Source: a virus
Lineage: Duplodnaviria; Heunggongvirae; Uroviricota; Caudoviricetes
Direction: 5' to 3' (one strand)
IMG/VR virus record: IMGVR_UViG_2529293069_000011
Length of the DNA stretch: 34,435 bases
Shown here: positions 24,001-27,000 of the stretch, piece by piece
How the letters are laid out: each line of letters begins with the position of its first letter
Numbering within the stretch: position 1 is the first letter of the stretch
Program-made: the position numbers

Positions 24001-27000
24001 TATAACCCAGGTACGCATACTTGGTGATTTACTATCAGCAACTTTATTTCATGCACCAACAATATTCTATCAATATCCTAAACTAATAGATGAAGTTAAG
24101 TATTGTATAAGTAATAAAAAAATAACAGGTTCGGTTATAGCACGATTTACTCTATGTTTAACAAGTACATTACTAACCATGTCACCACTGTTAATGCTTA
24201 ATGGAGCAGTTAAAACAGGTAGCATAGTAAGAACTATAGGTAGGGGAGTGAGTTATGCTGATATACCATTGGCCTTAGCTATATTAGGTGACTCATGGTA
24301 TAAAGCTTATAAACATGGTTCTTCTGATAACCCAAATTCTGCTCAGAGATTTATATCGCAAGAAGCGGCCTTTAAAACCACCCAGCGGGTATTAACACAA
24401 GGATTAAGTCTGATGTCCTCTTTATCGGGAGCAATCATGCGCTCTCTTGAGAAAGGCACACCACCACAAATGATGTCTTTATTCATCGTAAACATACTAA
24501 ATCTATTATTTCATCAAAATCCATATGAAGGGGCATCAGCAAGTGCTAATGCTTTGAAAAGATCAACTTACTCCCATAATCCGGACATACTAAATACTCA
24601 GGCAATAGCTCTTTGTGTTGACCTCCAGCATACAAAAAATATAACCATGCCACTTTTCAAAACAAAAGACAGGATATCTTACGCATTCAATGGACAAAGA
24701 ACATCCCCAGAAGACCAAAAACAAATACTGAAAGAAGTTATAAACTCCTGTACCCAAGGAGAAAGAGCCATTTTAAATACATCACAATCAGAAACATGCA
24801 AACATAAAATCGATGAGTTTTATGAAAAAAGATTCTCAGAAACAGAACTAAATACATTACCAAACGAAATGAAAAATTTCTTGATATTTTTGAACAAAAC
24901 TCATGAGAAAGATATTTCGCGTTTAAGCATAGGTAACGAAGTTAATGAAAAAATAATTGCAGTTATAGTCAAGACGTTAGCATATAGAGAGTCTATGTTG
25001 TGTTAGACTTTAACTCTACATTGATATAACATTAGCCAAATATTCAACAGTGTATGCGACCAAACACCAACATGTCGCATACATATACAATTTGAATATT
25101 TAATTATATTTACTTAATGTATTTCTATAAAAGCAAATTACAAACTCACAACAAAAAACCTCATAACACATTAACAATCAATTCTTTTCATCTTTATAAA
25201 TTCTCATATCAGGCTTGCACCCGATAAACCGACGAAAACTATTTAAAACCCATCGAGTGAAGTAATCTCTAAAACCAAAGAAATACCAAGTGAAAATATT
25301 CACGATAAAATGCCCGGTCAAAGCCCCTCCTGTACCGCATGCAAGAACAGTAAAAAATCAGATGTTTTCATAAATATCAGCCCTCATCGTTTTGCCTGGC
25401 ATGTCCTTTACCAGCAATCTTCTGTATGCACTAAGCCTAGATAGAATCCACTCAGTGTACACTGAAGCCCGCTCGACGCTTTCTTGTTCGTAACTTCGAT
25501 TTTAGTCAATCACCTTGTTTTCCTCGCACGATGTCTTAGCCACCGGATATCCCACAGATGAGCCGTGTAGTTGAAGGTTTTTACGTCAGATTCTTTTGGG
25601 ATTGGCTTGCGTTTATTTCTGGAGCGTTTCGTTGGAAGGTATTTGCAGTTTTCGCAGATGATGTCGGTGAAACTTCGTCGCTGTCGCCTCATGCCGCCCT
25701 CCTGACGCCCTGCCCGATCGCCATCAATGCCGCTTTGGATACGGTAGTAAACATCCGTCGAGGACTGATGAACGGTCGCCAAATCAGCAGCATGGAGCCT
25801 TTACTGTTTCCCTTCTTCTCCAGCCCTGTCGATGGTTCGATAAAATTAATCCGTCCATCAGTGATAATGCGAACTTCGTCAATACTCTCCAGAGCCTTGC
25901 TGAACCATCCGACAGACATATCCTCTGGCACAAGCATCACTACCGTCTGTCGCTGTTGTATGCACTGCTCAGCGGCTTTTTCCACCCACGGCCTGATATT
26001 GCTGTACGGTGGGTTATTCCAGATTGCACCGTGGCTTATCCACTCAGAATTGAGTGCGTCGTCGGCCTCAGTTAGCCAGTGAGCGCACAGAGCATTTTTG
26101 TCGCTCGCAGCTGAATCCAGCCAGAATCCAAACTCAATATCCAGCGCATCAAAAAGCCAAAGCGGCGTTTGCCAGCAGTCCTTGTCGTGTGCTGGTGTAT
26201 TTGATTTGATAGTCATGCAGCCCTACCTTTTCGTTGTGACCATTCATACTCTCGCCGGGAGTCATCACTCCACCGCACGTTGCGCTCTGAGCCGAACCAA
26301 AACATGATTTCGATAAGCTCAGTCATGCTGGCCTTTCGCATTTTGCTGGTACGCACGCCAAGCATGACAACGCCACCATCGATACCAGGCACACTTCGTT
26401 GCTCCAGTTTTTTGGTCTTAAGCCACAGGGCAGTGAACAGGTCTTTCCAGTCCTCCGGCGCAAGTCTCTGTCCATGCCAAAGCACCTGACGTGATACGTC
26501 CTGCAATAACGCCCACATAAGGCGGTTTTGAGGATTGCTCCGCTTTGGTTCTTTAATGTGGACTTCGTGAGGTGACTTGTCGTCGATCGGAAGTGAGAGT
26601 ATTGCGTCTATGGCGTTGTTTCTGATTGCTTCGTTGCGAAGCATGTATATTTGCTTCATTGTCACCTCAACTCACAAAACGCCACGCCATTTTTGCTACA
26701 GCGACAGGCGCAACACCGATAATCACCCACAGGAAAATGCTACCGAAAAGCACACCAACCAGGTCTTTACCTTCGCCTACCAGCCGGACAAAACTGCTGG
26801 CAACCACAATGAACGTCGCCACCATCCACATAGCACCGAGAATCCTCAATGCAGAAAAAATCAACTCAACCACGATTTACTCTCCCCCAAATAAAAAGGC
26901 CTGCGATTACCAGCAGGCCTGTTATTAGCTCAGTGATGTAGATGGTCATCTTTTAACTCCATATACCGCCAATACCCGTTTCATCGCGGCACTCTGGCGA

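Follow-up and report, generated by a model that had tools for sequence, protein, structure and literature searches.

In phage lambda, the nin region is entered through a 73-bp interval between the end of ren (40570) and the start of ninB (40644), which holds the mini-gene ninA and the terminator tR2. The maximal in vivo termination efficiency of lambda tR2 is about 0.9, and ribosomes stopping within about 30 nucleotides (nt) upstream repress its termination (Li et al., PMC4824070). The NinA start site ahead of tR2 was described as "not weak", and NinA translation cuts tR2 efficiency by only about 10% (Li et al., PMC4824070). ninA is counted among the nin genes of lambda and P22, and the ATGA overlaps of nin regions have been stressed (PMC8022706). 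Here we describe the corresponding locus in a prophage of 34,435 nucleotides, IMG/VR virus record IMGVR_UViG_2529293069_000011; this whole stretch of DNA is called the window. Its early (rightward pR) operon is on the minus strand, where the order is ren, ninA (whose frame runs through the hairpin), tR2, an open reading frame (ORF) of 68 codons named ORF68, and ninB. Our overall reading, to which we give a probability of about 0.7, is that the region is a standard lambda-like nin entry with one extra gene, ORF68.

Results

The terminator after ren

The identity of the terminator was examined by aligning the window with lambda (NC_001416), HK75 and mEpX1. From GATGACCATCTACAT through the hairpin and the U-tract to GGGGGAGA, the window and lambda differ at one base, a synonymous C/T change in the ninA frame, and the hairpin and U-tract are base-for-base equal to lambda tR2. 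The stem (AGGCCTGC/GCAGGCCT) has 8 bp, of which 6 are G-C, and carries an 8-nt loop, TGGTAATC. The U-tract TTTTATTT follows directly at 26896-26889. Folding of the hairpin alone gave -15.1 kcal/mol, and the ren stop lies 25 nt before it. The first-pass annotation, made from the sequence of the window alone, had described a perfect 8-bp stem with a T-run after ren on the early strand and had placed it at the position of the lambda nin terminators. Both descriptions hold: the element is present, and it lies between ren and ninB. Judged by its sequence, the hairpin is phage lambda tR2 and more than tR2-like.

A terminator pattern scan over 6 kb found 8 sites against 5.4 +/- 2.5 in shuffled sequences, which is not above chance. 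Because the pattern scan alone is not significant, the tR2 call rests on identity with lambda and on conservation. The same hairpin is annotated "terminator tR2" in the HK620 record and "terminator" in the HK75 record. The 33 nt of hairpin and U-tract are unchanged in 143 of 150 related viral loci. Among the seven variants, two have stem changes (C to T in the 5' arm and A to G in the 3' arm) that yield G-U pairs, and a third is altered in the loop only. On one viral contig (upstream class "AGGCCTGCGATTACCTGCAGGCCT"), the loop and the adjoining stem pair, TGGTAATCG, are replaced by GATTACCTG, which is nearly the reverse complement, while the other stem pairs are kept; an assembly artefact or a rare inversion of the loop may account for this. 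Rfam gave no match in the ren-ninB region.

Read-through of tR2 by N-modified polymerase is plausible, because the window has an N gene of the H-19B type together with boxA-like and boxB-like elements. The predicted N protein is identical to the annotated N of phage H-19B at 125 of 127 residues (98%). Downstream of cro on the minus strand are a boxA-like sequence, CGCTATTTT (29329-29321), and a boxB-like hairpin, TCGCT-GACAA-AGCGA (29298-29284). Read from the sequence, these elements at 29284-29329 are a probable nutR.

The ninA mini-ORF

A 27-codon ORF, MTIYITELITGLLVIAGLFIWGRVNRG, was overlooked by the first-pass annotation. Its ATG (26949) overlaps the ren TGA (26948-26946) as ATGA, its frame runs through the tR2 hairpin, and its TGA stop (26868-26866) is 3 nt past the ORF68 GTG. 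The first 23 of the 26 residues of lambda NinA (MTIYITELITGLLVIAGLFIWGRGKS) are identical to the window product, and the same ORF carries the NinA annotation in HK620, HK630 and SPN9CC. The frequent polymorphisms of ninA in relatives are synonymous or conservative (ATC/ATT, CTA/CTT/CTG, AGA/AGG, GGT/GGC, I to V and T to A). The 27-residue product is hydrophobic.

Lambda and the window are alike in the position of ninA directly after ren and in its ATGA overlap with the ren stop. They differ at the other end of the gene. The lambda stop of ninA forms another ATGA with the start of ninB, whereas the stop in the window falls just inside ORF68. The C-terminus reads ...RVNRG in the window and ...RGKS in lambda, and the two sequences diverge right after the Shine-Dalgarno sequence (SD). 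The terminator and ninA are textbook lambda features that were already known.

Evidence that ORF68 is a gene

The 68-codon ORF lies at 26873-26667, as had been noted before. The window-type allele is intact in all 87 loci (37 distinct DNA sequences), each with 207 nt, a GTG start and no indels. In the HK620-type allele class, which has about 55% amino acid (aa) identity, 73 of 80 loci are intact and all are 207 nt long, again with no indels. The first-pass annotation had held that absence or disruption in close relatives would speak against the ORF. Of 167 related viral loci, 160 have the ORF intact; the other seven, all in the HK620-type class, have a TGA at codon 15.

The ratio of nonsynonymous to synonymous substitution rates (dN/dS) between divergent alleles was 0.21-0.31 in the sense frame, compared to 0.66-1.37 in the two other sense frames and the in-register antisense frame. 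Among the 37 distinct close alleles, the variable sites by codon position were 21/10/20, and the corresponding polymorphism ratio (pN/pS) was 0.40 against 0.39 in another frame. Because these close-allele statistics are uninformative, the coding frame was settled only with the divergent alleles. The comparative sequence data show that ORF68 is a genuine coding gene, kept by purifying selection.

Two further observations concern variation in ORF68. The V2/A2 polymorphism (GTT/GCT) is silent in the overlapping ninA frame (GGT/GGC). Between the two allele classes, the DNA is nearly identical over ~11 nt at the 5' end and ~63 nt at the 3' end, and the part between them has about 45% protein divergence. 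This pattern suggests recombination inside ORF68 or a swapped central segment.

Start and translation signals

The SD of ORF68, GGGGGAGAG, is at 26888-26880, immediately after the terminator. Its GGAG is 8 nt from the GTG at 26873, and its duplex with the anti-SD was calculated at -8.9 kcal/mol. In the alignment, the same SD sequence serves ninB in lambda. The start codon is GTG in 167 of 167 related E. coli-type loci, and the allele of Salmonella phage SPN9CC (46% identity) has ATG at the same codon. The earlier proposals of a strong SD right after the terminator and of GTG initiation agree with these data. Residues K/R10, G13 and W16 are conserved in distant relatives and precede the first internal ATG; the 52-aa version to which ORF68 is cut in the HK630 record is therefore too short.

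The TGA stop of ORF68 (26669-26667) overlaps the ninB SD, GAGGTGA, and 7 nt separate it from the ninB ATG (26659). The anti-SD duplex of this ninB SD is -10.4 kcal/mol, compared to -3.2 kcal/mol for the upstream GTG picked by the ORF caller. At the other end, the spacing between the ninA stop and the ORF68 GTG appears typical of termination-reinitiation coupling.

A simple consensus scan found no promoter-like site on either strand at 26600-27300; the scan is crude and would miss weak or non-sigma-70 promoters. The same kind of scan found no sigma-70-like promoter on the minus strand at 29636-25321, from the pR region on. A weak terminator-like hairpin with a 7-bp stem, a 3-nt loop and a poor T-run lies on the plus strand at 26627-26643, antisense to the first ninB codons. 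It is probably a chance feature, and no promoter-like site is near it.

The ORF68 protein and its family

The predicted protein of 68 aa has a grand average of hydropathy (GRAVY) of 1.53. Hydrophobic segments span about residues 11-29 and 38-60, and the two Kyte-Doolittle maxima, at residues 11-29 and 41-59, reach 2.15 and 2.48. From an alignment of 17 sequences, AlphaFold2 predicted helices at residues 2-33 and 38-67 packed as a hairpin, with a mean predicted local distance difference test score (pLDDT) of 91.6 and a predicted template modelling score (pTM) of 0.70. Hydropathy and the model agree with the two hydrophobic helices proposed by the first-pass annotation. Family-wide counts of K+R over D+E were 13/3 at the N terminus, 20/20 in the loop and 22/2 at the C terminus. 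By the positive-inside rule, these counts point to an N-in/C-in topology with the short loop (consensus VNxGKDP) in the periplasm. The model and the charge counts favour a two-helix inner-membrane hairpin with both ends inside.

The homology search that had been recommended gave a clear result. ORF68 matched the PHROG 1165 profile hidden Markov model with E = 7.5e-37, residues 1-68 aligning to positions 1-68 of 68, and the function of this family is unknown. Members of PHROG 1165 include HK75 gp43, HK022_58, mEpX1_049, Stx2-86 orf69 and SPN9CC_0027, and they share with ORF68 the location behind ninA and tR2. Identity of ORF68 is 90-98% to the alleles of HK75, HK630, HK022 and mEpX1, and 46-58% to those of HK620, H-19B and SPN9CC. 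ORF68 is an ordinary member of a catalogued, uncharacterised family, and nothing is new at the sequence level.

An exhaustive HMMER search of 1.84 billion representatives (clusters at 50% identity) found only 19 clusters. About ten of them are evident fragments or frameshifts of E. coli alleles; nine others are complete proteins, 63-68 aa long and with 30-38% identity. W16, W49, G53 and W64 are invariant in the family, including its distant members, and P56 and K61 are nearly so. Pfam, NCBIfam and PADLOC gave no match to ORF68 at E <= 1, and a sequence-profile search of the PDB gave 0 matches. A Foldseek search of BFVD and the PDB with the AlphaFold2 model gave no match at E <= 0.001 (best E = 0.8). 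The non-significant matches, ATP-synthase c subunits and designed transmembrane proteins among them, were helical hairpins of a generic kind and are uninformative.

Gene order around ORF68

The features of the early operon, with the N gene on the pL side, are as follows.

28869-27931, minus strand: O (ORF list and Pfam)
27934-27233, minus strand: P (ORF list and Pfam)
27236-26946, minus strand: ren, the last gene before the terminator (ORF list; 3' end aligned with lambda ren)
26949-26866, minus strand: ninA mini-ORF of 27 codons (translation)
26920-26897, minus strand: hairpin of the intrinsic terminator tR2, with the U-tract at 26896-26889 (scan, folding and lambda alignment)
26888-26880, minus strand: Shine-Dalgarno sequence of ORF68, GGGGGAGAG (sequence, anti-SD duplex and lambda alignment)
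26873-26667, minus strand: ORF68, GTG-started, 68 codons, 207 nt (ORF list, PHROG 1165 and comparative data)
26662-26668, minus strand: Shine-Dalgarno sequence of ninB, GAGGTGA (sequence and anti-SD duplex)
26659-26213, minus strand: ninB, recombination mediator (Pfam NinB, E = 7e-49; RefSeq annotation in O26:H11 11368)
26216-25689, minus strand: Dam-type methyltransferase, after ninB (ORF list and Pfam)
25782-25510, minus strand: NinE, after the Dam-type methyltransferase (ORF list and Pfam)
31278-31661, plus strand: N antiterminator gene, pL side (identity to H-19B N)

Over 2.5 kb, E. coli O26:H11 strain 11368 shows 99.4% identity and has the same gene arrangement. Its RefSeq annotation gives "protein ren", ORF68 as a 207-nt "hypothetical protein", and ninB.

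Distribution and cassette structure

At least 995 contigs already carry a deposited protein identical to that of ORF68, called "hypothetical protein", "phage protein" or "membrane protein". By tblastn, 107 phage records carry ORF68, and 48 of them are Stx2a-converting phages. The 107 records also include HK75, HK629, HK630, HK022, mEpX1 and mEp235, and more distant alleles occur in HK620, HK633, mEp213, H-19B and P22-like Salmonella phages. In the HK620 and H-19B records, ORF68 is present and unannotated. Among complete E. coli genomes, 529 of 5426 have ORF68, at 679 places and with up to 4 per genome. The ninA-tR2 module occurs at 3001 places in 2054 E. coli genomes, so that roughly a quarter of tR2 sites precede ORF68.

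Lambda has no ORF68; in the alignment of its 73-bp ren-ninB interval, tR2 is followed directly by ninB. ORF68 matches no Pfam Nin family. The suggestion of the first-pass annotation that a small membrane protein is encoded here outside the canonical lambda nin set was borne out, as ORF68 is absent from lambda and corresponds to no named nin gene.

The unit of ninA, tR2 and ORF68 is joined at the ninA ATG to at least seven unrelated upstream sequences. These include ren, several DnaB- and DnaC-type genes and a helix-turn-helix gene, for which the break is at the hairpin. The ORF68 stop codon is the exact junction with at least four unrelated downstream genes. Because these junctions fall at gene boundaries, the unit behaves as a mosaic lambdoid cassette. 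Distant relatives of ORF68 on four metagenomic contigs lie just downstream of replication genes, within tightly overlapping small nin-like genes. Three of five genome-contig loci are near-identical copies of the E. coli-type cassette, on short contigs that were binned into metagenome-assembled genomes under the labels Cellvibrionaceae, Bacillota and Collinsella; most likely these are binning contamination by enterobacterial phage DNA.

Discussion

The position of ORF68 suggests how it may be expressed. No sigma-70-like promoter was found after pR and tR2 is directly upstream, so expression would be delayed-early and lytic. ORF68 would be transcribed only within the delayed-early pR transcript, once N suppresses tR2, and its product would be made during lytic growth and be silent in the lysogen. 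Translation probably begins both by direct initiation at the strong SD and GTG and by termination-reinitiation from ninA. Since the ORF68 stop is inside the ninB SD, ORF68 would in turn hand ribosomes on to ninB. Such a "chain of interlinked genes" is typical of nin regions.

The product may be a non-essential inner-membrane accessory factor. A specific role for it in exclusion or host modulation is a tentative suggestion drawn from analogy, and we would not bet on it at even odds. As a guess, it might act on a host membrane protein to modulate it, or it might keep the DNA of a superinfecting phage from entering, in the manner of T4 Imm. T4 Imm, HK97 gp15 and P22 SieA resemble it in being small, helical transmembrane proteins of accessory context. 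This analogy is functional only, and no relation in sequence, profile or fold to ORF68 was detected. It is conceivable, if doubtful, that the whole family consists of lytic-only small inner-membrane effectors with a specific host inner-membrane target. Such effectors could block DNA entry of competing phages, disarm a membrane-acting defence or tune the proteolysis that governs lysis and lysogeny, and the three invariant tryptophans with the G53/P56/K61 motif would form the interaction surface.

Several facts weigh against our reading of the locus and of its product. We found no literature on the ORF68 protein, so its expression timing, membrane location and function are all inferred; papers on epsilon34 and Sf6 mention nin regions, without ORF68. 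In the profile, PADLOC and fold searches, ORF68 resembled no characterised protein of exclusion, regulation or toxicity. Close alleles show only moderate selection (pN/pS 0.40), which by itself does not tell the frames apart. In the H-19B/Stx1-type lineage, seven of the 80 loci of the HK620-type class, GGA has changed to TGA at codon 15. This null allele is at 1195-1401 of AF034975.3 in H-19B, and a Stx1a phage shares the H-19B allele type. All seven loci have the same allele, which looks like one lineage; because of the premature stop, ORF68 is dispensable at least there. Finally, the distant family members on the four metagenomic contigs have no upstream terminator, and hence the link between tR2 and ORF68 is positional and not a property of the family.

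A small and very hydrophobic protein could instead be a toxin-like membrane peptide, as the first-pass annotation had suggested: a type I toxin resembling Hok/Gef or TisB, or a lysis/holin-like protein. Its expression would then kill the cell or make it permeable, and toxicity on overexpression is common among small hydrophobic phage proteins. Class II holins or pinholins such as S21-68 of phage 21, compared here in general layout only, share with ORF68 the length of about 68 residues, two transmembrane helices and probably the N-in/C-in topology. They differ from it in genome position and in sequence features. The lysis cassette is at 14.3-15.3 kb, about 11 kb further along the early strand, and the ORF68 tail, KMAWRFVS, lacks the charged C-terminal tail typical of holins. 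There is no dual-start motif and no match to a holin family. With ORF68 outside the lysis cassette, without the charged tail and without a family match, a holin was rejected. Toxins more broadly are also disfavoured by the searches of Pfam (including its Hok families), NCBIfam and PADLOC, and the consensus scan, crude as it is, found no promoter-like site for an antisense RNA or for a promoter of its own. ORF68 lies within an operon whose genes overlap in their start and stop signals and forms no self-contained toxin locus, and up to 4 copies per genome are tolerated. We consider a toxin unlikely. About as improbable is a moron-type protein for superinfection exclusion or lysogenic conversion, made in the lysogen like HK97 gp15 or P22 SieA. 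A small inner-membrane protein, absent from lambda and carried on a mobile cassette at about a quarter of ninA-tR2 sites, would suit this role. Morons typically have their own upstream promoter and a downstream terminator, whereas here the terminator is upstream and the consensus scan found no promoter-like site. Expression of HK97 gp15 and SieA takes place from the prophage. ORF68 follows tR2 in the lytic early operon, with its stop inside the ninB SD and 7 nt from the ninB ATG, and at such a position it would be silent under repressor control.

Two other explanations dispense with a function of the ORF68 protein. In one, only the act of translation matters, and ORF68 would serve as a coupling or spacer ORF by which ribosomes pass from ninA to ninB, or would tune tR2 read-through. 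The overlap of its start with the end of ninA and of its stop with the ninB SD is what such an ORF would show, and ribosomes near tR2 reduce termination (PMC4824070). Selection is at the protein level, however, with low dN/dS in the sense frame only. The invariant Trp and Gly residues are kept in relatives of 30-38% identity that have no upstream terminator, and lambda couples ninA to ninB without ORF68, so we regard this explanation as very improbable. In the other, ORF68 is a chance open frame in a spacer, or one of two long antisense ORFs on the plus strand (26577-26894 and 26626-26928) is the real gene. Both antisense frames are open across the whole of ORF68 in the window, and the close-allele counts of variable sites (21/10/20) do not separate the frames. 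In four distant homologues, however, 1-5 stops interrupt the antisense frames, and HK620 and SPN9CC already have one of the two broken; the sense frame remains open. Between divergent alleles dN/dS was about 0.7-0.9 in the antisense frame against 0.2-0.3 in the sense frame, and the mosaic junction coincides exactly with the stop codon of the sense frame. In our view, the antisense stops in homologues and the low dN/dS confined to the sense frame rule out the antisense ORFs as the real gene, and we see hardly any chance for this explanation as a whole.

An extra gene in a lambda-like nin entry, as we read the locus, has some practical consequences. A small ORF that is often mis-annotated or left unannotated is described as a real gene with a GTG start, and its gene model is corrected. 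The conserved residues and the likely topology of its family are defined, and the cassette is mobile and present in about 10% of complete E. coli genomes and in most of the matching records of Stx2a-converting phages. If the family does consist of effectors, it might be relevant to the biology of Shiga-toxin phages, in view of the 48 Stx2a-converting phages among the 107 records. If it had a specific host-membrane target, the protein would extend the list of small-protein effectors in lambdoid phages. The natural knockout allele of the H-19B/Stx1-type lineage (G15 to stop) would ease a phenotype test.

Other features of the window

Opposite to the nin genes, a 617-codon ORF with 34% G+C lies on the plus strand inside the nin region (23153-25006). 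It has no Pfam or NCBIfam match, and the corresponding RefSeq annotation in O26:H11 11368 is a 590-aa hypothetical protein. The ORF has the appearance of a moron, carried as foreign cargo. Between this low-GC ORF and the HNH/NinG genes is an IS30-family transposase gene (21717-22868, minus strand; NCBIfam E = 3e-82). It looks like a recent insertion, because the otherwise near-identical prophage of O26:H11 11368 has no such gene there.

A homologue of LpxR, the outer-membrane lipid A deacylase, is encoded on the opposite strand between the Q gene region and the nin genes (18475-19434, plus strand; Pfam E = 7e-40; 37-40% G+C). It is probably a cargo gene for lysogenic conversion. The only Rfam match in the window is the lambda cIII thermoregulator (RF01804) at 32369-32427 on the plus strand, with 88.5 bits, which fits a lambda-like pL operon on that strand.

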